A DNA stretch of 40,446 nt from a virus (lineage: Duplodnaviria > Heunggongvirae > Uroviricota > Caudoviricetes): IMG/VR virus record IMGVR_UViG_2630968766_000009; one strand, given 5' to 3'. Of the stretch, positions 25,811-33,969 are shown one piece after another. Position numbers and translations under genes: made by a program. The notes below the pieces were generated by a model, which worked only from the letters and a program-made list of their open reading frames with translations, ran no database searches and was not told the origin of the DNA. Each line of letters starts with the position of its first letter. The stretch's first letter is position 1.

Positions 25811-26265
25811 TACGCCTCCTGCTTGTCGCGGAGCAGCTGGAACTCGCAGCTCTGCGGAATAGTCAGGTGGCAGCCAATATTCACCGCCCAGGCTTCAACC
25901 TTACACAGGAAGACATACATCTCTCCGGTATCAAGATCGGAGGTATAGCGTAATGACTGAATGGTGGTGATTTCACCGGTTACGACATCAACCAGGTCTT
26001 TGGTTTCAAAACCGAGATAAGTGTGTTTGAGAGCATCTTTTACCCAAGCTGCAGTAGCGAACGATTTCCCCCTGCTTATGAGGTATTCACTGATTTCGCT
26101 GTACCACATGTGGCTAAGTGCATTCTGGGAAAGACTGCGTCTCTCGCGCCACGGTTTAAGCACCATGCGAAAGCATTTTCCGTCCTCCAGATAAGGCTGG
26201 ATCTGCTGACCGATAGCGGTGAAGTTACCGCGATGTAATTTGATGCCGTCTTGTGGGAGGTTCAC
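25810..26265 (-). CDS. NinB/YbcN-family recombination protein
   Basis: 151-aa ORF in the nin-region position; remembered as similar to DLP12 YbcN. Confidence 0.7.
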
Positions 26266-26475
26266 GCTTCACCTCCGCAGAGGTCAAACGTTGGATGCAA
26301 AAAATCGCAGGTGCATTTCTGCATCTGTGAAGGGAGAAGAGAGTTTGGATTGTGTGTGCGCATAAACGTCCCCGTTTAGCGCAGAAGTCACCGGAGTTGT
26401 TCAGGTTCCGGTGATACAATTATGGCGAATTGATGACGGAGAATCAATTTTGCGAAAATGACACGATTGATCTAC

Positions 26476-27108
26476 TCAGGCCTTGGAAAGCTTGAGCTTA
26501 CCCTTTACGTGCAGAGTGTTAATTAACCAGAAGGCCCCGAGCAAACACATACAATGCGCGCTAGTGACTAACTTACAAATACGAATGCGATTTTCTTCAA
26601 GATCAGGAGGTAGCTCTTTCATCAACGCTATAGCGTAGATTCCATCCTTGAGAATTGGCTCAACAACTTGATGCACGTAGCCACCATGGTTAATCTCTTC
26701 TAACTTTATGTTTTTAATCGATTCTGCGAGTTTATCAACCTCTTCATTTGTAATTACATATTCAATTTTATGAGCGTACTTGTTACGTATTGTGTTGAGC
26801 TCAGCCATAGCGTCTGCAAGCGAGACAGGAAGCCCTAACAGAACTGCGGCAGACAGCTTTGACGCAAAATACTTATAGCTTCTTATCGAATTGTATTTTT
26901 CAGAGCCATCAGGTCGTAAGTTTTCAATAACAACCCGAAGAAAGTCCTCATGAATTAGCATCAATTTTAATAGCGCGGCAGACTCATCCTCATAGTTAGC
27001 TATCGAGGCCATTTTATTAAGATCTAGAAAATAGCCAAAGTCATGATCGATTTTCACGTAGTTACCCTCATCCGTTGTTGGACTTTGTTCAATTCGAGAG
27101 AATTTCAT
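26476..27108 (-). CDS. Hypothetical protein with a HEPN-like R-x4-H motif (candidate toxin / abortive-infection effector)
   Basis: 210-aa ORF in AT-rich DNA; motif ELNTIRNKYAHK (RNxxAH) typical of HEPN RNase active sites; hydrophobic C-terminal segment LLGAFWLINTL. Start overlaps the upstream small ORF stop (ATGA). Confidence 0.55.
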   Translation of the reverse strand: MKFSRIEQSPTTDEGNYVKIDHDFGYFLDLNKMASIANYEDESAALLKLMLIHEDFLRVVIENLRPDGSEKYNSIRSYKYFASKLSAAVLLGLPVSLADAMAELNTIRNKYAHKIEYVITNEEVDKLAESIKNIKLEEINHGGYVHQVVEPILKDGIYAIALMKELPPDLEENRIRICKLVTSAHCMCLLGAFWLINTLHVKGKLKLSKA

Positions 27109-27281
27109 TTATCTTCCTCCTGTTTCATATATCTAGGGTCAGATGCTTTAGGCTGGGTGATGCTATGCTCAATGGAGAAGCCGGACGCGCTCCATGTTGA
27201 TTTGCCAGTTTGAGCTATCGTGACAACACATTCATTATTGTCGATGTTAACTTCGCGCAGCACTGGTAACTGTGAATTCAT
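27105..27281 (-). CDS. Small hypothetical protein (58 aa) coupled to the HEPN-like gene
   Basis: Manual translation: MNSQLPVLREVNIDNNECVVTIAQTGKSTWSASGFSIEHSITQPKASDPRYMKQEEDK; a GGAG RBS precedes the ATG and the stop overlaps the next start. Confidence 0.4.
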   Translation of the reverse strand: MNSQLPVLREVNIDNNECVVTIAQTGKSTWSASGFSIEHSITQPKASDPRYMKQEEDK

Positions 27282-27443
27282 TTTCTAACTCCTGTTTAAT
27301 GTTGACACCGCATTTATGCTGTCACGACACAATTACTTTCTATCCTGCTGTGATGCTGCTGACAGCGGCATCCAATACCTTACCTTCTCAGCATTCTGCA
27401 AAATCGATGACGAGTCATGACCGGTTCGCGTAGCTCAGTGAAA

Positions 27444-28067
27444 TTACTGCAACCTTTCCTGACGGAAATATGGTAACACTCGACTCCACTTATCATCCTG
27501 CCAAGGCTGGAATTTTACATGTGCCGTTTCTCTGGCGAGGATTGCTCGCGCTCTGTTGAGTATCTGGGGATATTCTTGCTCGATAGAAGTAAAGCGACCG
27601 GCTTCGCGGTGCTCCGCGACCTGAAGAAGTGGAGTAACGTTCTGGCAGGCAGTTAACATCACATCACTTGCTCGCCATAACCAAGCAAGTGTGCAAAGTT
27701 CGTTATCAGTGAATTGTTTTGTGATTGGGGATTGTTGAATTTCTCGATCGAGAATATCCAGCACCCAGCGGCGGAACTCTTTGGCTACAGGAGTTCGTGC
27801 AAACATGGCGATCAGGTGAGCGCCGCGCAGGGAGAATACACGCACTTTTTTTCTGTAATTTCCTGAGGTCACTGATTCGATGACCTGAGTCATACCGCTA
27901 GTAAATTCGTCGGCATTCTGGTTGAACAGATTAGTTACTGACTTTGCGCTTTTGTACTGTAAAGCGTTCGCGATTTCGGTAGAGGTCAGCCAGATTCCTG
28001 TCATGCCAGCAACCGGTACAATCGCTTTACCTTGGAAGTTCAGATCTGATCTTGCTACAATATTCAT
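27444..28067 (-). CDS. Bro-N domain antirepressor-like protein
   Basis: Frame 27444-28148; N-terminal LNFQGKAIVPVAGMTGIWLTSTEIANALQY and ...SLRGAHLIAMFARTPVAKEFRRWVLDIL match the Bro-N pattern. Start chosen at MNIVAR (AGGA RBS); the alternative ATG at 28148 overlaps the upstream RHH gene. Confidence 0.65.
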   Translation of the reverse strand: MNIVARSDLNFQGKAIVPVAGMTGIWLTSTEIANALQYKSAKSVTNLFNQNADEFTSGMTQVIESVTSGNYRKKVRVFSLRGAHLIAMFARTPVAKEFRRWVLDILDREIQQSPITKQFTDNELCTLAWLWRASDVMLTACQNVTPLLQVAEHREAGRFTSIEQEYPQILNRARAILARETAHVKFQPWQDDKWSRVLPYFRQERLQ

Positions 28068-28137
28068 GTCGATATTTCCTACGCGGTTATTTTCGATAGA
28101 AGCCCCTGAGGTTGCCGCCAACGGGGCTTCGCTGTTT

Positions 28138-28296
28138 TTAGCGAGCATGTATCCGCTCTCTAAATTTCAATGCCCACACAAGCGCCTGAACAATAGCGGC
28201 GTTCTCAGACATCCCTTCCTCCTGTGCAATTCGCTTGAATTCATCCTTCACATTTTGCGGATAGCGAAGGGTGATTTTTACTTCTTTCTTTTCCAT
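28138..28296 (-). CDS. Arc-like ribbon-helix-helix repressor
   Basis: Frame trimmed to MEKKEVKITLRYPQNVKDEFKRIAQEEGMSENAAIVQALVWALKF... (52 aa); AGGAG RBS 7 nt upstream; RHH beta-strand and helix pattern. Confidence 0.6.
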   Translation of the reverse strand: MEKKEVKITLRYPQNVKDEFKRIAQEEGMSENAAIVQALVWALKFRERIHAR

Positions 28297-28396
28297 TGAT
28301 ATCTCCTTGTGAGGCCATAATGACACCATGAGGCCATAATGCCACCATTGAATTGATGTGGCAATATGGCACCATTCATTTTTTTGGGGATTTCCA
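28297..28396. promoter_or_regulatory. Divergent promoter/operator region with tandem 19-bp repeats
   Basis: gaggccataatgacaccat and gaggccataatgccaccat in tandem, then a third partial copy (gcaatatggcaccat), between the two divergently transcribed RHH genes. Confidence 0.4.
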
Positions 28397-28699
28397 ATGG
28401 CTGATAAACAAGTAAAAAACTATGATAAGTTTAACCTCCGTTTCCCTGATGGGATGCGTGAAGCTATAGCTGAACGTGCCAAGCGTAATGGCCGCTCAAT
28501 GAACTCAGAAATCGTGCAAATACTTGAAGATGCGCTTTATACAGACAGTGCACGAGTGTTCACCGTTGAAGATGAAGTGAATCACTCAGGGAATGTAGCA
28601 ATAGATCCCGTGCAACTTGAGAAATTAATGGAAAAAGTGATAAACAAGGCATTAATGGGCTTTACAGGATCGCCTGCAAAAAAAATTGATAAAAAATAA
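28397..28699 (+). CDS. Mnt/Arc-like ribbon-helix-helix repressor
   Basis: Frame trimmed to MADKQVKNYDKFNLRFPDGMREAIAERAKRNGRSMNSEIVQILEDAL..., close to the P22 Arc/Mnt RHH motif (FNLRxP...NGRSxNSEI), with about 50 extra C-terminal residues. Confidence 0.65.
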   Translation: MADKQVKNYDKFNLRFPDGMREAIAERAKRNGRSMNSEIVQILEDALYTDSARVFTVEDEVNHSGNVAIDPVQLEKLMEKVINKALMGFTGSPAKKIDKK

Positions 28700-28738
28700 A
28701 AAAATTATTAGAAACTTCTGCTATATGACTAAGGATAA

Positions 28739-29221
28739 ATGATGAGTAAATTTGATCGTTATTTACAAAGAGAAATTCTGGCTTTAGCTATTGATGCCTA
28801 CCCTGCTTATATTGGTCATAAACACTCTAAAATTCCAGCCAGCTATGAGTTATTAAAAAATGCCAAAGAAGATTTGGTGTATCCTAATATACATTACTTG
28901 CATGAACACAGCTTAATAAATTTCGATAAGATAGGATATAGAAATAACAACAGTAATCCCTTAGCATGGGTAAAAGCAACCTCTCACGGCATTGATTTCG
29001 TTCAGCAGGATGGAGGCCTTTCTGCCATTCTAAACGTCAAAACAATCAGGTTTCATAAAGACACTATAGTTGTACTGGAAGACCTCATAGCGATTTCAAA
29101 TATGAATGATACTGATAAAGAAAAGGCTAAATCTATTCTTTCTGAATTACCAGTTGATGCAATTAAAACAGTTGTACAAACACTTACAACTACAGCTCTA
29201 AATGCGTTGCTAAAATCATAA
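28739..29221 (+). CDS. Hypothetical protein (160 aa), AT-rich, downstream of the Mnt-like gene
   Basis: ORF begins 40 nt after the Mnt-like stop with an AAGGA RBS; no domain recognised. Confidence 0.45.
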   Translation: MMSKFDRYLQREILALAIDAYPAYIGHKHSKIPASYELLKNAKEDLVYPNIHYLHEHSLINFDKIGYRNNNSNPLAWVKATSHGIDFVQQDGGLSAILNVKTIRFHKDTIVVLEDLIAISNMNDTDKEKAKSILSELPVDAIKTVVQTLTTTALNALLKS

Positions 29222-29366
29222 ACGCTCCTATGAAAGGCTTGTCCTTATGGTTATGACTTAGGAGGATCATCGTTATCCCTCAATCAATAAATATAAATTT
29301 ACCACGACGAAATTAAATATTTTTAATACAACCGGCATTAACACTTAAAGCAATAATAGTGAGTTA

Positions 29367-29789
29367 TTAAGATGTAATACGGTAAGTTGAAGTATTTTCT
29401 CCTTTATAACAGTTCAAAACATTAAATTTATTGACCAATTTGACCATGCCAGAATTTACGTTTACCACTACCATTTCAACAACTGGCAGTTTCTTAAGCA
29501 ATGAAGAAATTACTTGAAATCCTATTGATTTTCCCTGCATGCTTTTAGCTATATGAATTTCATGCAAAAATATGTAACCTTCACGAGGGATTGATATATC
29601 CAAATTCATATATTCAATCTCTACATACCCAACTAAATAACCTTGGTGCTTTATAAAATAGATATTCTGCACATCATTGATTTCATAAACTTTTTGGCTC
29701 CAGCCATAACTAGAACGGTAGGTATTTAACGTTATAAGTTTTTTATCATCAGGTAGATTACAAGAAGCAAACTTAACAAAATTAACCAT
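29367..29789 (-). CDS. GNAT-family acetyltransferase-like protein
   Basis: 140-aa ORF in very AT-rich DNA; segment IFLHEIHIAKSMQGKSIGFQVISSLLKKL resembles GNAT motif A (R/Q-G-K-G-I-G with one substitution). Confidence 0.45.
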   Translation of the reverse strand: MVNFVKFASCNLPDDKKLITLNTYRSSYGWSQKVYEINDVQNIYFIKHQGYLVGYVEIEYMNLDISIPREGYIFLHEIHIAKSMQGKSIGFQVISSLLKKLPVVEMVVVNVNSGMVKLVNKFNVLNCYKGENTSTYRITS

Positions 29790-30112
29790 AATCTAACCTT
29801 CCGTTAATTTCCGAATAGTTATAATAAAAACATAATCGATTTGCCGTTTCTTATCCACAATATGGTAGACTCGTGAACGTGCTATAATGATATTATATCA
29901 TACCAACATTTTTATAGCTCTCCCTAAATTTTCGTCTTCAGTGGGCCACCTGAAAACACCGTTTGTCATGTTTTTCTACCTAGCGCCCTCTTTCGCCAGA
30001 ATACCTTCCTCCCGGTTGATACTGACTATGGTCGCACTAGTCGATTCTGCAACATCAGTCGCACAGAAATTCTGGTGCGTTTCCAAGTAGTGAATAATTG
30101 CCTCTTTGCCCG

Positions 30113-30814
30113 TCATACAGTTGCTCCTTTCAGTCCGAACTTCGCTTTAATTTCTGCGATCTTCGCCAGAGCCTGTGCACGATTTAGAGGTCTACCGCCC
30201 ATGACAGGAAGTTGTTTTACTGGTTCAGGTATAGCCTCACCACGGTTAATTCGTGCGGTCATACAGGACAGTTCATCGGCAGCCTTGCGCCGTAATTCCG
30301 CGTCAGTCAACGCATTGGCCCGCATGTTCTGATACAGGTTGGTAACCAGCCAGTAGTGCGCGTTTGATTTCCACGGATAAGACTCTGCATCCGGATACAG
30401 CCCGCGCTTCCGGCAATACTCGTAAACCATATCAACCAGCTCGCTGGCGTTTGGCAGCCCGGCGGTAACGGATGCTTCTTCCCGGCACCAGGCGACAAAC
30501 TGCCCGGGTGATGGCAGGAATGGTCGATTCTGCCGACGGGCTACGCGCATTCCAGCGTTAACCTGTTCCATTGTGGTGATCCCGTTTTCCCGGAAAGCCA
30601 GCACCCACTGGCGGCGGATTTCGTTCAGTTCATTCTGGTCACGGTTAGCCAGGCTCGCCGGGAAAGTTGCCAGTAACTGGCTGAACACACCATTGATGAT
30701 CTGCGCTACCTGTTGTACCTGCGGCTTTTCGTCGTACTGTTCCGGCATGTTGTTGGCGATCCGGCGCATCTGCTCACGGTCAAAGTTAACCATCTGTGCG
30801 GCGATGTTTTTCAT
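30113..30814 (-). CDS. P: Replication protein P (DnaB helicase loader)
   Basis: 233-aa ORF, lambda gpP length; start overlaps the O stop. Confidence 0.9.
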   Translation of the reverse strand: MKNIAAQMVNFDREQMRRIANNMPEQYDEKPQVQQVAQIINGVFSQLLATFPASLANRDQNELNEIRRQWVLAFRENGITTMEQVNAGMRVARRQNRPFLPSPGQFVAWCREEASVTAGLPNASELVDMVYEYCRKRGLYPDAESYPWKSNAHYWLVTNLYQNMRANALTDAELRRKAADELSCMTARINRGEAIPEPVKQLPVMGGRPLNRAQALAKIAEIKAKFGLKGATV

Positions 30815-31740
30815 AAATCCACCCCGTAAATCCAGTCAGTGTTTGTCAGGTCGAGTTTTGGTTTGCTGGCTATCATGCCTGCCTGTTGCTTGTTACGGTT
30901 GATTTCGAGTTGGGTCCACTTGTCGCGGAGTTTGGCCGGACTTAGCACGTTACCGGACCAGAAGTTGTCCTGGCATGCCCAGCGGAAAAGCACGCACATG
31001 TCGCGGTGGTTACGTCCGTCACGTTCACGCATCAGGCGGATATCGTTAGCCCACCCTGCAAAATTCGGTTTTCTGGCTGATGGTGCGATGGTCTTCACCA
31101 TGTCAAACATCCACTCTGCGGCGGTCAGGTCTTCTGCTGTCCCCCACTTGCTGCCGCTCTGAATTGCAGCATCTGGTTTCACCACAGGAAGATCGTTTTC
31201 TGGTTGGTCAGAGGATTCGCCAGAATTCTCGGACGAAAAAGGTTTTATATTGTCTTTTGTTAGTTTGTCTTTTGTGTTTACCTGATTCGGGTAAACGCCT
31301 TTACCTGATTTGGGTAAACTTTTCTTACCTGATTCAGGTAAATTTACCTCTTTCAGGTAAACTTTATTTTTCTTACCTGATTCGGGTAATGTTGACCATT
31401 CACTGACCACATTATTAATACCGATATTCCGCCCGCTCTGAATCAAAATCCCACGCTTTACCAGAACACTTTTTGCAGCAGAACACTTGTGCGGTAATAT
31501 CCCGGTCAATCCGGACAGTTGCTCGTTGCTCACCCAATCCAGTTTTTTATTAAAGCCATATGTTTTGCGCATGACAGCCAGGAAGACCAGAAGCTGGTGC
31601 TGTGTTAATCCGGCCAGCATCACAGCTTCCAGCAACTCATTTGCAATGCGCGTATAACCATCATCGAGATCTGCCACGCGCGGCTCCTTTTGTGCCGCAT
31701 CCGGCACTGGAAAATTGAATATCTCAGCAGTGTTTGCCAT
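30811..31740 (-). CDS. O: Replication initiator protein O
   Basis: Frame 30811-31830; start chosen at MANTAEIFNF... (ATG 31738-31740) because GGGAGGAATT lies just upstream. Internal LPESGKK repeats are encoded by the iterons; the C-terminal part is lambda O-like. Confidence 0.85.
   Translation of the reverse strand: MANTAEIFNFPVPDAAQKEPRVADLDDGYTRIANELLEAVMLAGLTQHQLLVFLAVMRKTYGFNKKLDWVSNEQLSGLTGILPHKCSAAKSVLVKRGILIQSGRNIGINNVVSEWSTLPESGKKNKVYLKEVNLPESGKKSLPKSGKGVYPNQVNTKDKLTKDNIKPFSSENSGESSDQPENDLPVVKPDAAIQSGSKWGTAEDLTAAEWMFDMVKTIAPSARKPNFAGWANDIRLMRERDGRNHRDMCVLFRWACQDNFWSGNVLSPAKLRDKWTQLEINRNKQQAGMIASKPKLDLTNTDWIYGVDL
31277..31391. repeat. Replication origin iterons (inside O) with adjacent AT-rich region
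   Basis: Five direct repeats of about 18 bp: ttacctgattcgggtaaa, ttacctgatttgggtaaa, ttacctgattcaggtaaa, ttacctctttcaggtaaa, ttacctgattcgggtaat. The AT-rich tract lies at 31230-31276. Confidence 0.6.
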
Positions 31741-31826
31741 AATTCCTCCCGCAATGAGTGTGTTACGATTTGCACCTGAAAGTCGGTTCTGTTCCCGCAG
31801 ACCGACTTTCGCCATTTTTGAACCTG

Positions 31827-32372
31827 TCATATTGCCCCCAGCATGGTGGTGACCATCGCCATCAATGGACCAGCCAGATCCGGGTCCACTCGAAACATCG
31901 ACACAATGCCTTCACTCATCTCCTTCAGTTTCTGGTGGCGTGGTGCGTTGAGAATGACCGCCTGCTTTGCCTCACAGAGTTCCTTTTCCATTTCAGCCAG
32001 CCGAGCCATGAAGCTATCCTGCTCAACCAGGTGGCCGCGATATTCCAGCGGTAGTACCGCCAGAATTGCCGGGGTCAGTTCACGCACGTTATTTCGGTAT
32101 TTTTCAGAATCGAATTTGTTATCGAGGAAGCGGAACAGCTTCTGGCGTGCACGGCTGACATCATCAGGGAAATCGATGGTGCCGCCGCCCTGCTCCCGAT
32201 ACTCATTCACAATGAGTGCGGCAACAACATCCTGATTATCTGCAGCCGACCAGGCGCGAACGGCATCACGGATTTTTTCGTGGCCTGGCACCTGTTTTAT
32301 TTGAGAACGATTTATCACCGCAGTCGGGCTAAATCCGCTAGTCTGTTGGTATGTAAGTGGTTGCATAATCAT
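31827..32372 (-). CDS. YdaT-family protein (cII-position regulator)
   Basis: 181-aa ORF immediately after the cro-like gene; segment NEYREQGGG...LTPAILAVLPLEYRGHL resembles remembered Rac YdaT. Confidence 0.55.
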   Translation of the reverse strand: MIMQPLTYQQTSGFSPTAVINRSQIKQVPGHEKIRDAVRAWSAADNQDVVAALIVNEYREQGGGTIDFPDDVSRARQKLFRFLDNKFDSEKYRNNVRELTPAILAVLPLEYRGHLVEQDSFMARLAEMEKELCEAKQAVILNAPRHQKLKEMSEGIVSMFRVDPDLAGPLMAMVTTMLGAI

Positions 32373-32396
32373 TGCCTTATCAGTTAACGCCGCAGT

Positions 32397-32624
32397 TTAG
32401 GCGGCAGAATTACTCGCGTTAAACAATGGTGCAAGGTCGGGACGAATATCTGCTGGTTTAATCTTTCCACCAGTGGCTGAGACAATTTTCATTACATAGC
32501 GGGCATCAATTCCCCCACCGTGTAGCCAACGCCAAACAGTGGGCTGGGCTACACCGCATAGATCTGCCAGTCGTTTTTGGCTACCTGTAATACTGATTGC
32601 GAGTTGAATGGTTTGATTTGTCAT
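32397..32624 (-). CDS. Cro-like HTH regulator (YdaS-type)
   Basis: Frame trimmed to MTNQTIQLAISITGSQKRLADLCGVAQPTVWRWLHGG...; AGGA RBS; divergent from cI. Confidence 0.65.
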   Translation of the reverse strand: MTNQTIQLAISITGSQKRLADLCGVAQPTVWRWLHGGGIDARYVMKIVSATGGKIKPADIRPDLAPLFNASNSAA

Positions 32625-32630
32625 TATCAA

Positions 32631-32734
32631 TTCCTATTGGTATTACAATGAATGGATAATAGCAATGCGTATTAACCCAATCAATAGCAAAACGTGTTTT
32701 GACCATCAATACGCAAGCGTATAAATTAAAACTT
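32631..32734. promoter_or_regulatory. oR-like region: divergent pR and pRM with operator-like imperfect palindromes
   Basis: Minus-strand TTGATT-N17-TATTAT (plus coordinates 32656-32684) upstream of the cro-like gene. Plus-strand TTGACC ... TATAAA 9 nt before the cI ATG. Motifs such as taatagcaatgcgtatta recur at the pL-side site. Confidence 0.4.
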
Positions 32735-33427
32735 ATGAAAAAAGAAACTCTTGCTGATCGCTTAAACCTAGCGATGGAACAATCTGGAATGTCTCAAGGC
32801 GCTCTTGCAAAGGCGTCTGGCGTAGCTCAACCCACAATCTGGAGACTGACAAGCGGCAACGCACGCGGCTCAACAAAAATTGTTGAAATAGCTAATGCAT
32901 TGGGTGTTCGAACAGAGTGGCTCTCATCAGGCATAGGCCCGATGAGAAATGACGGTCAACAATCAGGGAAGCCTGCTGCCAACCATCCCAAATACTTCAA
33001 GATTGACGTTCTTGATATAGAAGTGAGTGCCGGGCCGGGAGTCATCAACCGTGAGTTTGTAGAAGTTCTACGCTCGGTTGAGTACTCGTTTGACGATGCT
33101 CGTCACATGTTCGATGGCAGGAAGGCAGAAAATATCCGCATCATTAACGTACGCGGTGACAGCATGTCAGGAACGATCGAACCAGGTGATCTTCTGTTCG
33201 TTGATATCACTGTTAAATCTTTCGACGGTGATGGTATCTATGCGTTTCTGTATGACGACACAGCCCATGTTAAGCGCCTGCAAATGATGAAGGATAAACT
33301 GCTGGTTATCTCTGATAACAAGAGCTACTCACCGTGGGACCCAATCGAGAAAGACGAGATGAACCGGGTGTTTATCTTCGGGAAAGTTATTGGGAGCATG
33401 CCGCAAACATACAGGAAACATGGATAA
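32735..33427 (+). CDS. cI: CI-type repressor (N-terminal HTH, C-terminal LexA-like S24 autopeptidase)
   Basis: Frame trimmed to MKKETLADRLNLAMEQSGMSQGALAKASGVAQPTIWRL...; C-terminal GDSM...KRL Ser/Lys dyad. Confidence 0.85.
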   Translation: MKKETLADRLNLAMEQSGMSQGALAKASGVAQPTIWRLTSGNARGSTKIVEIANALGVRTEWLSSGIGPMRNDGQQSGKPAANHPKYFKIDVLDIEVSAGPGVINREFVEVLRSVEYSFDDARHMFDGRKAENIRIINVRGDSMSGTIEPGDLLFVDITVKSFDGDGIYAFLYDDTAHVKRLQMMKDKLLVISDNKSYSPWDPIEKDEMNRVFIFGKVIGSMPQTYRKHG

Positions 33428-33507
33428 TCAATAATAGCCTGATTAGACATTTGGGTGATGAGAGAGGCTGCAGAAACGCAGCCTGATTCTAAAATGGGAT
33501 ATAAAAA

Positions 33508-33969
33508 ATGAGAATACTAGGTGTTAGGGCGGCGCCCAAAGTTACATCTTTTGTTGTATATTGCACTGATGAGTCTGCACTCAAATGTGTTGATGTTATT
33601 AAAATACCTTCGACCTTAGACACACCAGAAAAATTAAAGTATGTGCGAAATAACATCCTCGACATTCTTAATTTATATAATGTTGAATTAGCTGCTATAC
33701 GCGTTACTGAATCAAACTCTGATAATCTTAGCATTGACCGCCTTTATATAGAAGCTGTTATTCAAGAAGCATTTTCAAGCAGTGATGTAAGAAGATATTA
33801 CACCATTAGAAAATCTGGTATGAAGTCATCATTGAACCTAACAGAGATCGAGTATAAAGAAATATTGAAGTCACACCGTAATATAAATGGAATCGATAAT
33901 TCTGGTTTTACAACTGAAACAAATGAAGCTGTTTTGGCTGCACTATCTGCGGAGGTAAGGGGATGCTGA
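33508..33969 (+). CDS. Hypothetical protein (153 aa), translationally coupled to the kinase gene
   Basis: AT-rich ORF MRILGVRAAPKVTSFVVYCTDE...; its stop overlaps the kinase start (ATGCTGA). No domain recognised with confidence. Confidence 0.55.
   Translation: MRILGVRAAPKVTSFVVYCTDESALKCVDVIKIPSTLDTPEKLKYVRNNILDILNLYNVELAAIRVTESNSDNLSIDRLYIEAVIQEAFSSSDVRRYYTIRKSGMKSSLNLTEIEYKEILKSHRNINGIDNSGFTTETNEAVLAALSAEVRGC

Follow-up and report, generated by a model that had tools for sequence, protein, structure and literature searches.

The stretch of DNA analysed here (the window, 40,446 nucleotides) very probably (roughly 85 %) contains the lysis/lysogeny immunity region of an intact, DLP12-like lambdoid E. 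coli prophage. Judged from sequence comparison, the region would be a mosaic in which a CI/Cro/operator specificity of its own is combined with a phi80-type CII, an oop/M3-type RNA and lambda-type O and P. Cro-type and YdaT-family genes on the minus strand are divergent from cI on the plus strand, and the lambda-type O and P genes lie downstream. The YdaT-type regulator in the ‘cII’ slot is real and correctly read; it is not new, because a regulator of this type in this slot is already known from phi80, Rac and CP-933P, and YdaS/YdaT have been described as Cro/CII equivalents in the literature (Casjens 2003; Jobling 2018; Jurenas 2021; Prolic-Kalinsek 2023; Wons 2025). The genes of the region were assigned as follows.

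30113..30814, minus strand: P replication protein (Phage_lambda_P; 98 % identical to lambda P)
30811..31740, minus strand: O replication initiator, 309 aa from the lambda-equivalent start (Phage_rep_O; GGGAGGAATTATG at the start)
31827..32366, minus strand: ydaT-type (phi80-type) cII gene, 179 aa (Pfam, PHROG, identity to phi80 CII, AF2/Foldseek; RefSeq start 32366)
32397..32624, minus strand: cro/YdaS-type HTH gene, 75 aa (Pfam, PDB Cro matches, PHROG 35)
32735..33427, plus strand: cI repressor, 230 aa, HTH and S24 autopeptidase domain (Pfam HTH_3, Peptidase_S24)
33508..35205, plus strand: rex-position cargo, comprising a 153-aa ORF, a 348-aa Ser/Thr kinase and a 54-aa ORF (Pfam Pkinase; PADLOC mad6 and PD-T4-6; PHROG 3875 and 2361)
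35175-35205: intrinsic terminator closing the rex-position cargo, just before OL (terminator scan)

The open reading frames of the initial annotation have the coordinates that it gave, and Pfam and BLASTP searches upheld both its YdaS/YdaT pair and the frame in which the pair was read. At least 80 % of the region was found in 717 of 5426 complete E. coli genomes, and regions of about 97 % identity are present in sequenced phages carrying cI/cro/cII annotation. The prophage looks intact, and near-identical inducible relatives exist; phage 4A7 and PhiR70_1 are examples of inducible relatives.

Candidate operators and promoters, and the CI repressor

Five 16-bp sites resembling AATAGCAA-N4-(G/C)TATT were identified, exclusively at cI/cro (three, with 25-bp spacing) and at the pL-like promoter (two). 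The candidate sites and promoters of the two regions are listed below.

32629..32644: possible fourth operator-like site in the cro leader, AATTCCTATTGGTATT, PWM score 17.0
32656..32684, minus strand: pR-like promoter TTGATT-17-TATTAT with TG before the -10, reading into cro (consensus scan; overlaps the two cro-nearest operators)
32658-32673, 32683-32698 and 32708-32723: OR, three 16-bp candidate operators, 25 bp start to start, AATAGCAATGCGTATT, AATAGCAAAACGTGTT and AATACGCAAGCGTATA (partial dyad symmetry, top PWM scores; overlapping pR and pRM)
32699..32727, plus strand: pRM-like promoter TTGACC-17-TAAATT (consensus scan)
35289-35304: weak third OL candidate
35333-35348 and 35358-35373: OL, two strong candidate operators, AATAGCAATAAGTATT and AATAGCAATAGCTATT
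35347..35375, plus strand: pL-like promoter TTGATA-17-TATTAT (consensus at 10 of 12 positions; both OL sites overlap it)

It had been proposed that the same operator-like motifs occur at the cI/cro intergenic region and around the pL-like promoter, and this arrangement was found to be real and lambda-like on the basis of motif counts, a 49-nt repeat and PWM scores. The sequence CAATCAATAGCAA was found exactly twice, at 32678 and 35328, and AATAGCAAT three times, all within the cI/cro and pL-like regions, a count reached in none of 100 shuffles. The stretch 32658-32706 is repeated at 35333-35381 with 73 % identity over its 49 nt, and the OL site AATAGCAATAGCTATT is self-complementary at 14 of its 16 positions. 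As in lambda, the operator sites overlap the -10 and -35 boxes. Outside the set used to build the matrix, AATTCCTATTGGTATT was the top-scoring site (in shuffled sequences the maximum was 12.8 on average and 18.8 at most).

The predicted start of the pRM-like promoter falls approximately at the cI ATG (32735), before which there is no Shine-Dalgarno sequence, and the cI mRNA is therefore predicted to be leaderless. The lambda pRM and CP-933P PRM transcripts are likewise leaderless (PMC8630535). The CI protein carries SAG, GDSMS and VKRL opposite QAG, GNSMT and FKKL of lambda CI at the cleavage and catalytic residues, which on alignment marks it as a LexA-like repressor with the Ala-Gly, Ser and Lys autocleavage motifs. 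The description ‘lambda-like cI’ thus holds for architecture and catalytic motifs, but overall identity to lambda CI is only 24 %. The 16-bp sites would be bound by CI and, in the reverse order of preference, by Cro; this binding would keep pR and pL off in the lysogen, with cI expressed from the leaderless pRM transcript. Prophage induction would proceed through RecA-stimulated autocleavage of CI.

The YdaS- and YdaT-type genes in the cro and cII positions

The product of the cro-position gene matched the Pfam family YdaS_toxin (PF15943) at 54.5 bits (cutoff 30) and is encoded divergently from the repressor, in agreement with its initial description as a YdaS-like HTH protein. Its nearest solved proteins were the PDB Cro proteins 3bd1 and 5w8y (E ~1e-3), it matched PHROG 35 ‘transcriptional repressor’, and AGGA stands 7 nt before its ATG. 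A 5-bp hairpin (GCCGC-N7-GCGGC) lies over the cro stop codon, with similar sequences in phi80 and CobraSix; it folded no better than shuffles and bears no resemblance to the phi80 nutL core.

The cII-position gene had been described as YdaT-like and much larger than lambda CII (97 aa), and several lines of evidence support this. Its length had been given as 181 aa, which is that of the mechanical ORF (31827-32372); this ORF is two codons longer at the 5' end, and the likely start at its third codon gives 179 aa. The 179-aa protein matched Pfam YdaT_toxin (PF06254) at 101.9 bits (cutoff 21) and PHROG 163 ‘CII-like transcriptional activator’ at 222.5 bits, and PF06254 was carried by 120 of 120 homologues among the matches listed. 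It is 66 % identical to phi80 CII over its full length (180 aa aligned), and CII-annotated homologues also occur in mEp237, HK225 and HK639. The gene is placed between cro-like and replication initiator genes, as in phi80, HK639, mEp237 and PHB10. CobraSix and a Klebsiella phage keep the cro-cII arrangement with different replication genes.

Homology searches gave no sign of a lambda cro and cII called in the wrong frame. This reading was ruled out: BLASTP aligned no more than 46 residues of the cro-position protein with lambda Cro, at 26 % identity, and lambda CII gave no alignment with the 179-aa protein at E up to 100, PF06254 being the latter's only Pfam match.

An AF2 model of the YdaT-like protein as a monomer (pLDDT 77) contains helices at residues 29-42 and 45-58, an 11-residue loop, helices at 70-82, 88-104 and 107-113, and a long amphipathic helix at 119-138; that is, a POU-like all-alpha HTH fold with a long inter-helix loop, followed by a long helix. 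The best Foldseek matches were the YdaT crystal structures 3c4r and 8bt1, on which the model superposes with target-normalised TM scores of 0.72-0.75, an rmsd of 2.3-2.9 A and a probability of 1.0; the matches below these had E ~1, and there was no other strong PDB match. The description of the YdaT structure match is ‘YdaT transcription regulator (CII functional analog)’. In a phmmer alignment QKLFRFLDN lies opposite QKIFRWLDK of 8bt1; the resulting recognition-helix motif QK(L/I)FR(F/W)LD, common to CP-933P YdaT, is nearly invariant in the subfamily of 179-180 aa. The recognition-helix arginine (Arg60 in CP-933P, R57 in Rac) corresponds to R79 here and is nearly invariant among 25 subfamily members.

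In CP-933P, YdaS and YdaT are Cro and CII analogues and YdaT activates PRE933P (PMC8630535); YdaT has been footprinted and forms a tetramer (PMC9986795); and in Rac, a reverse promoter with a YdaT-box is activated up to 29-fold (PMC11879457). By analogy with these two prophages, the CII of the present phage would be a tetrameric POU-like HTH protein acting on boxes of the TTGATT-N6-AATCAA type, and would switch on a reverse, pRE-like promoter to give a burst of cI. Following infection, pR would transcribe cro and then the YdaT-type CII gene, which begins 24 nt downstream with no terminator between the two. Identity to the experimentally studied YdaTs is only ~27 %. Two candidate boxes were located in the region.

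32301..32318: weaker candidate YdaT box in ydaT codons 15-20, GTGAT-N8-CTCAA, centred +56.5 from the cII ATG
32613..32630: candidate YdaT box centred on the cro ATG, TTGATTTGTCATTATCAA, with one mismatch to the footprinted TTGATT-N6-AATCAA

At no more than one mismatch, two YdaT-box matches were found in the window (0.14 expected); at up to three mismatches there were 28 (22 expected), which is not above chance. The second match with at most one mismatch is at 26430, between two unrelated ORFs. The best match lies on the cro start codon, unlike in CP-933P, where the site is at the cro/ydaT junction. No pRE-like promoter was located with confidence from the window repeats and seven phi80-type loci, and in these, together with five aligned junctions, neither an inverted repeat nor a YdaT operator was common to the sequences joining cro and cII. 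A near-match to the +56.5 box was found at the same position in five of seven phi80-type loci, where the conserved (M/V)-I-N-R-x-Q codons read xTGAT-N8-xTCAA, an agreement confounded by coding conservation. One of the operators of the phi80-type CII may lie inside the codons of the protein's own disordered N-terminal extension.

The position of the better box raises the alternative that the YdaT-type protein is mainly a repressor, acting on cro translation or pR elongation through the cro-ATG box, or on replication, instead of a CII-like activator. The region has no other near-perfect match to TTGATT-N6-AATCAA. In Rac, YdaT shields the surroundings of the ydaS start from -60 to +40, which includes the promoter and ribosome-binding site (PMC11879457), and CP-933P YdaT has been described as a repressor with its main site downstream of PRE933P (PMC9986795). 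However, the two YdaTs examined by experiment each switch on a reverse promoter from which the repressor gene is transcribed (PMC8630535; PMC11879457), Rac YdaT at the intergenic region alters ydaST promoter output little (PMC11879457), and a single motif match is weak evidence, the box being missing from the cro start of six other phi80-type loci. We therefore consider a mainly repressive role quite unlikely and retain the reading of a CII-like activator. One tetramer could also occupy both boxes, which are 312 bp apart, forming a DNA loop with the pRE-like promoter on and cro blocked.

The phage has no N gene. No put RNA of the HK022/HK639 type was found downstream of pL or pR: an HK639 putL query recovered HK022 putL at E 4e-9, whereas its best match in 31700-36000 was only 17 nt (E 0.16). 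The pL leader as a whole folded no better than shuffles (z -0.38). Given the absence of N and of an HK022-type put RNA, early transcription may use an undescribed cis element in the ~190-nt pL leader, or no antitermination. Taken jointly, an operator within the ydaT codons, a YdaT tetramer looping between two boxes and early transcription that depends on a novel cis element or proceeds without antitermination form a reading that is unlikely as a whole.

A predicted antisense RNA next to the start of O

A stem-loop had been reported between the YdaT-like gene and O. It exists, although not as 8 bp at 31756-31790: its two 10-nt arms (31778-31787/31801-31810) form a perfect inverted repeat, and 4 more base pairs make up an inner stem. 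It lies between the two genes only if O starts at the ATG at 31740; the mechanical ORF and the RefSeq annotation extend O to 31830, overlapping ydaT. The designation of O and P as lambda-like was borne out by their Pfam matches and their identity to the lambda proteins; for O this is 67 %, with a near-identical C-terminal half. The 90 nt upstream of the lambda-equivalent O start contain indels between relatives, and the RefSeq start is probably 90 nt too far upstream. This extension conceals the conserved oop/M3-type antisense RNA, for which the following elements were predicted.

31715..31743, plus strand: pO-like promoter TTGAAT-17-CATAAT with TG, its -10 overlapping the O start codon (consensus scan)
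31750..31820, plus strand: predicted oop/M3-type antisense RNA, ~70 nt (terminator hairpin 31778-31810, followed by GCCATTTTTG)

The pO-like promoter can be aligned with the lambda pO region and with its counterparts in phi80 and HK639, and the records of these two phages carry an annotated M3 RNA (phi80) and M3-like RNA (HK639) at the corresponding position. Across six phages, compensatory changes were present in 6 of the 14 stem pairs. The hairpin is predicted to be the terminator of a ~70-nt antisense RNA that is the positional homologue of lambda oop and phi80 M3 RNA. Because the U-run starts 4 nt past the stem, it is uncertain how efficiently the hairpin would terminate transcription, and it was not called by the terminator scan. 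Rfam at gathering thresholds matched no family in the whole window, and at E up to 5 gave only two chance-level matches in 31600-36000.

We also considered a function for the stem-loop in the minus-strand (sense) RNA, where it might, for instance, stabilize the mRNA or serve in antitermination in the manner of nutR/boxB or put, since transcription must reach Q even though N is absent, and the hairpin also forms on the minus strand (-22 kcal/mol). That fold is no better than shuffles (z -1.8), however, as against -24.6 kcal/mol and z -3.8 for the plus strand. Over the six phages, 84 of 84 stem cells pair on the plus strand and 74 of 84 on the minus strand, where ten G.U cells become A.C mismatches; the covariation and G.U pairs thus assign the stem-loop to the plus strand. 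In addition, only on the plus strand is the stem followed by a conserved U-run, the lambda-pO-like promoter lies ~35 nt upstream of the stem on that strand, the equivalent slot of phi80 holds the experimentally known M3 RNA, and there is no likeness to the HK022/HK639 put RNA. A role on the sense transcript is thus very improbable.

The antisense RNA would be transcribed from the pO-like promoter over the O start codon, pair with the ydaT-O intercistronic RNA and, in an oop-like manner, reduce expression of CII and/or O. It ends ~8 nt short of the ydaT stop codon and therefore, unlike oop in the case of cII, cannot target the coding sequence.

Relation to known lambdoid switches

The gene order of phi80 (GenBank JX871397, X13065), namely cI, the cro-like gene 30, cII, M3 RNA, gene 15 and gene 14, is the same as here. 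In both phages a short gap separates the Cro-like gene (73-75 aa) from the cII gene downstream of it, and the interval from cII to the O-like gene holds a small antisense RNA, predicted in the present phage, that has its own promoter and a terminator hairpin. The repressor is LexA-like in both, and OR and OL each have three operator sites, the third OL site being a weak candidate here. In contrast, cI is only 23 % identical and cro 34 % over 44 aa, and the operators are 16-bp sites of AATAGC type here and 19-bp sites in phi80; this divergence points to a different immunity specificity. Furthermore, phi80 has an N gene with nutL and carries genes 15 and 14 in place of lambda-type O and P, and its hairpin arms differ in sequence.

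As in CP-933P (PaaR2/YdaS/YdaT) and Rac (RacR/YdaS/YdaT), the cro and cII slots are occupied by YdaS/YdaT-family genes divergent from the repressor, the YdaT proteins share a fold and a conserved recognition-helix motif, and a leaderless repressor mRNA is predicted. The present YdaT differs in length (179 versus 141 aa) and in having a disordered N-terminal extension of ~28 residues and extra C-terminal helices. The repressor here is a complete CI that includes an S24 autopeptidase domain, whereas CP-933P and Rac have the CI analogues PaaR2 and RacR; both are cryptic prophages.

Lambda has the same overall logic and layout: three spaced operators cover the divergent pR and pRM, operators are repeated at pL, and the accessory genes that separate cI from pL end in a terminator. 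A promoter overlapping the start of O likewise gives an antisense RNA, a predicted one in the present phage, and P and the C-terminal half of O are nearly identical in the two phages. Its CII is unrelated in sequence and little more than half as long, its N gene and its tR1/nutR gap between cro and cII are missing here, its oop overlaps the cII coding sequence, and its rexAB genes are replaced here by the kinase cassette.

That YdaS/YdaT form a toxin-antitoxin pair lodged beside the repressor instead of switch regulators is extremely unlikely: both Pfam families are named ‘Bacterial toxin’ and overexpression of Rac YdaT leads to filamentation and death (PMC11879457), but lambda CII is also toxic on overproduction, CP-933P YdaT is non-toxic and tests in Rac and CP-933P led to rejection of the toxin-antitoxin hypothesis (PMC8630535; PMC5917428), while the genes here belong to a complete lambdoid early region, in which they take exactly the places of cro and cII, the YdaT-like protein is the phi80 cII orthologue, and the YdaT fold is that of a DNA-binding HTH tetramer (Foldseek match; PMC9986795). 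The RefSeq name ‘toxin YdaT domain-containing protein’ is therefore misleading for this gene, a lysogeny regulator.

A very common E. coli prophage is thus confirmed to use the phi80/YdaT type of CII, which is of small value as a discovery. Experimental study of YdaT-type CII proteins has to date been confined to cryptic prophages, and this phage family offers a convenient intact, inducible system for probing their mechanism.

Phage-80-type CII and YdaS-type Cro in the immunity region

The genes of the immunity region and its flanks are arranged as follows.

30113–30814, minus strand: P (Pfam Phage_lambda_P)
30811–31740, minus strand: O (Pfam Phage_rep_O), 309 aa from its probable start
31827–32366, minus strand: YdaT-family gene at the cII position (Pfam YdaT_toxin)
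32397–32624, minus strand: Cro/YdaS-family gene at the cro position (Pfam YdaS_toxin)
32735–33427, plus strand: cI (Pfam HTH_3 and Peptidase_S24)
Beyond cI, plus strand: 153-aa ORF, 348-aa Ser/Thr kinase and 54-aa ORF with a terminator
After the 54-aa ORF and terminator, plus strand: pL-like promoter, then kil and gam

The initial annotation placed a YdaS-like protein at the cro position and a YdaT-like protein at the cII position, and both matched their Pfam families above cutoff, at 54.5 bits (cutoff 30) and 101.9 bits (cutoff 21) respectively. The alternative, that these are lambda cro and cII with a mis-called frame, is contradicted by the YdaT-like protein, for which similarity to lambda CII was undetectable. 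Its length had been given as 181 aa; the family assignment stands but the gene likely starts at the third codon, giving 179 aa, as this codon has AAGG 8 nt upstream and is the start used by RefSeq, and the homologues are 179–180 aa.

The YdaT-type protein is a phi80-type CII. In tblastn searches of phage genomes, the phi80 cII product was 66% identical over its full length, homologues in mEp237, HK225, HK639, CobraSix and Klebsiella phages (CII in most annotations) were 52–73% identical, and those of Rac-type phages were more distant (~35%). PHROGs places the protein in family 163, 'CII-like transcriptional activator'. An AlphaFold model built from a 25-sequence alignment (mean pLDDT 77) has a disordered segment at residues 1–25, then an all-alpha HTH domain whose HTH helices are separated by a loop of 11 residues, then long helices. 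Foldseek against the PDB returned convincing matches only to the two YdaT entries, 3c4r and 8bt1 (TM 0.72–0.75, probability 1.0), the latter titled 'YdaT transcription regulator (CII functional analog)'; all other PDB matches had E values of about 1. Alignment to CP-933P YdaT, proposed as a check, paired the recognition-helix sequence QKLFRFLDN with its QKIFRWLDK; this motif is nearly invariant in the 179–180-aa subfamily, which is widespread in Enterobacteriaceae.

The assignment of this pair as cro and cII analogues is thus correct and, given published work, established knowledge. YdaS and YdaT were equated with Cro and CII from gene context (Casjens 2003; Jobling 2018, PMC5917428), and the CP-933P proteins were found to behave as such, with CP-933P YdaT activating the cryptic PRE933P and its homology to phi80 CII already remarked (Jurenas et al. 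2021, PMC8630535). YdaT is a tetramer of solved structure with the footprint TTGATT-N6-AATCAA (Prolic-Kalinsek et al. 2023, PMC9986795). In Rac, a reverse promoter is activated up to 29-fold through a YdaT-box at the ydaT start codon; YdaT also binds around the ydaS start, and two YdaTs only 30% identical cross-recognise (Wons et al. 2025, PMC11879457).

The description of cI, O and P as lambda-like was apt for P (98% identity to lambda P) and for O (67% identity to lambda O, with a near-identical C-terminal half) but less so for cI, whose product shares only 24% identity with lambda CI; despite this, its Ala-Gly cleavage site and catalytic Ser and Lys align with those of lambda CI. Inside O (31250–31400), where lambda has its ori iterons, there are repeated units of the CTGATTCGGGTAA / CTGATTCAGGTAA type that differ from the lambda iterons, consistent with the divergence of O over its N-terminal half.

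Putative operators and promoters, and antitermination

The motifs reported as shared between the cI/cro intergenic region and the pL-like promoter are real and non-random by counts and shuffles. The 13-mer occurs exactly twice, once per region, and the 9-mer three times, all inside the two regions, a count equalled in 0 of 100 shuffles. A 49-nt block at 32658–32706 is repeated at 35333–35381 with 73% identity, and the motifs resolve to partly palindromic 16-bp sites of the form AATAGCAA-N4-(G/C)TATT; in the best of these, AATAGCAATAGCTATT, 14 of 16 positions are self-complementary. In a consensus scan, promoters overlapped these sites in the same manner as in lambda.

32658, 32683 and 32708: three operator-like sites at cI/cro, 25-bp spacing
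35333 and 35358: two operator-like sites at the pL-like promoter
32684 to 32656, minus strand: pR-like promoter, TTGATT-17-TATTAT
32699–32727: pRM-like promoter, TTGACC-17-TAAATT
35347–35375: pL-like promoter, TTGATA-17-TATTAT

We infer that CI or Cro binds the 16-bp sites. A further site at 32629–32644, outside the set used for building the matrix, scored 17.0 (shuffle maxima averaged 12.8, the highest being 18.8) and may be an additional, fourth operator, lying within the cro leader. The cI mRNA is predicted to be leaderless, as the pRM -10 and the cI ATG are separated by 7 nt and this codon lacks a Shine–Dalgarno sequence upstream; this is also the case at lambda pRM, and the CP-933P repressor mRNA is leaderless by 5'RACE (PMC8630535).

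No N-like gene was found between pL and kil (pL leader 35376–35660), and the tR1/nutR gap is absent, since cro and the ydaT-type gene are only 24 nt apart (32373–32396). There was no similarity to the HK022/HK639 put RNAs, and nothing was reported by Rfam. An in-frame Arg-rich stretch of 14 residues precedes the kil ORF, without a credible start codon or Shine–Dalgarno sequence. A 5-bp hairpin, GCCGC-N7-GCGGC (32389–32405), spans the cro stop codon, and the cro-like genes of phi80 (GCCGCCTAACCGGCGGC) and CobraSix end in similar sequences; its fold was no better than shuffles and it did not resemble the phi80 nutL core.

A conserved hairpin between the ydaT-type gene and O

An 8-bp stem-loop had been placed at 31756–31790, between the YdaT-like gene and O. 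Nothing of the kind is found at those coordinates; there is a hairpin in this gap, given an O start at ATG 31740, consisting of a perfect 10-bp inverted repeat (31778–31787/31801–31810) with a 4-bp inner stem, within 86 nt of non-coding sequence. RefSeq and PhiR phage records start O at 31830, giving 339 aa overlapping ydaT. This is probably an over-extension, as the 309-aa start at 31740 is backed by the lambda O alignment, by the Shine–Dalgarno sequence GGGAGGAATT immediately 5' of the ATG and by indels among relatives in the stretch upstream. The longer call masks a conserved antisense-RNA region.

The hairpin is best read as the terminator of a putative ~70-nt antisense RNA of the type of lambda oop and its phi80 counterpart, M3 RNA. 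Folded as RNA, the plus strand reaches -24.6 kcal/mol (z -3.8, compared to -1.8 for the minus strand). Six phages were aligned (the window, mEp237, CobraSix, PHB10, a Klebsiella phage and SEN34): compensatory changes were seen at 6 of 14 stem pairs, pair-cells were canonical or G.U in 84/84 cases on the plus strand and 74/84 on the minus strand, and each of the six had GCC(A/T)TTTT after the plus-strand stem. The plus strand also carries, about 35 nt before the stem, a pO-like promoter, TTGAAT-17-CATAAT with a TG extension, homologous to the lambda pO region and with its -10 overlapping the O start codon. Exactly the same slot is annotated 'M3 RNA, homolog of lambda oop RNA' in phi80 and 'M3-like RNA' in HK639. 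As in phi80, the predicted RNA would end shortly before reaching the cII stop codon, and would therefore pair with intercistronic RNA rather than coding sequence. By analogy with lambda oop, it may affect CII or O expression.

Predicted switch and prophage context

Beside the gene families, fold, operator/promoter geometry, CI cleavage motifs and conserved plus-strand hairpin established here, the steps of a switch can be proposed from lambda, phi80, CP-933P and Rac. CI would hold pR and pL off and sustain its own synthesis from pRM, Cro would counteract pRM, and RecA-stimulated cleavage would induce the prophage. A YdaT-type CII tetramer would establish repression by turning on a leftward, plus-strand promoter, with the antisense RNA tempering CII or O.

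A pRE-equivalent promoter (for establishment of repressor synthesis) was sought but not located, and the cro–cII junctions of seven phi80-type loci had no inverted repeat in common. A candidate YdaT box, TTGATTTGTCATTATCAA (32613–32630), is centred on the cro ATG with one mismatch to the footprinted box. Two such one-mismatch matches occur in the whole window compared to 0.14 expected, a count reached in 2 of 100 shuffles. The other, TTGATGACGGAGAATCAA (26430–26447), falls between minus-strand ORFs 26225–26419 and 26476–27108, upstream of the Q-like gene region. A weaker candidate, xTGAT-N8-xTCAA at +56.5 of the cII ORF, is present in 5 of 7 loci and coincides with conserved (M/V)-I-N-R-x-Q codons, so coding constraint may explain its recurrence.

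The window represents a DLP12-type lambdoid prophage that looks intact. Many complete E. coli chromosomes carry its immunity segment at 100% identity, and 717 of 5426 complete genomes have at least 80% of the 1.8-kb immunity query. In the one chromosome examined, NZ_CP027462, ren, emrE, ybcK, ybcL and ybcM lie to one side of the segment and kil, gam, bet, exo, xis and int to the other. Downstream of P (26476–30116) the window departs from this chromosome, with other ORFs of 234 aa (27444–28148), 160 aa (28739–29221) and 140 aa (29367–29789) replacing ren-emrE-ybcK-ybcL-ybcM. These ORFs had no matches to PADLOC models, and the region looks like a mosaic cargo region.

Between cI and pL (33508–35009), in the place of rexAB, the 153-aa protein overlaps the 348-aa Ser/Thr kinase. 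The former lacks a Pfam match and belongs to PHROG 3875, 'RuvC-like Holliday junction resolvase'; the latter was recognised by two models of anti-phage defence, mad6 and PD-T4-6. Together they are probably a prophage-encoded exclusion cassette, co-expressed with cI and with a terminator at 35175–35205.

The isolated phages Perceval, 4A7, Lambda_4C10, D2, 1W, 3W and the PhiR series are ~97% identical to the immunity segment, with genes annotated as cI, cro or repressor, cII and O. The region joins a phi80-type CII module to lambda O/P and to CI/Cro of a distinct specificity, a combination already known from annotated phage genomes and typical of lambdoid mosaicism.
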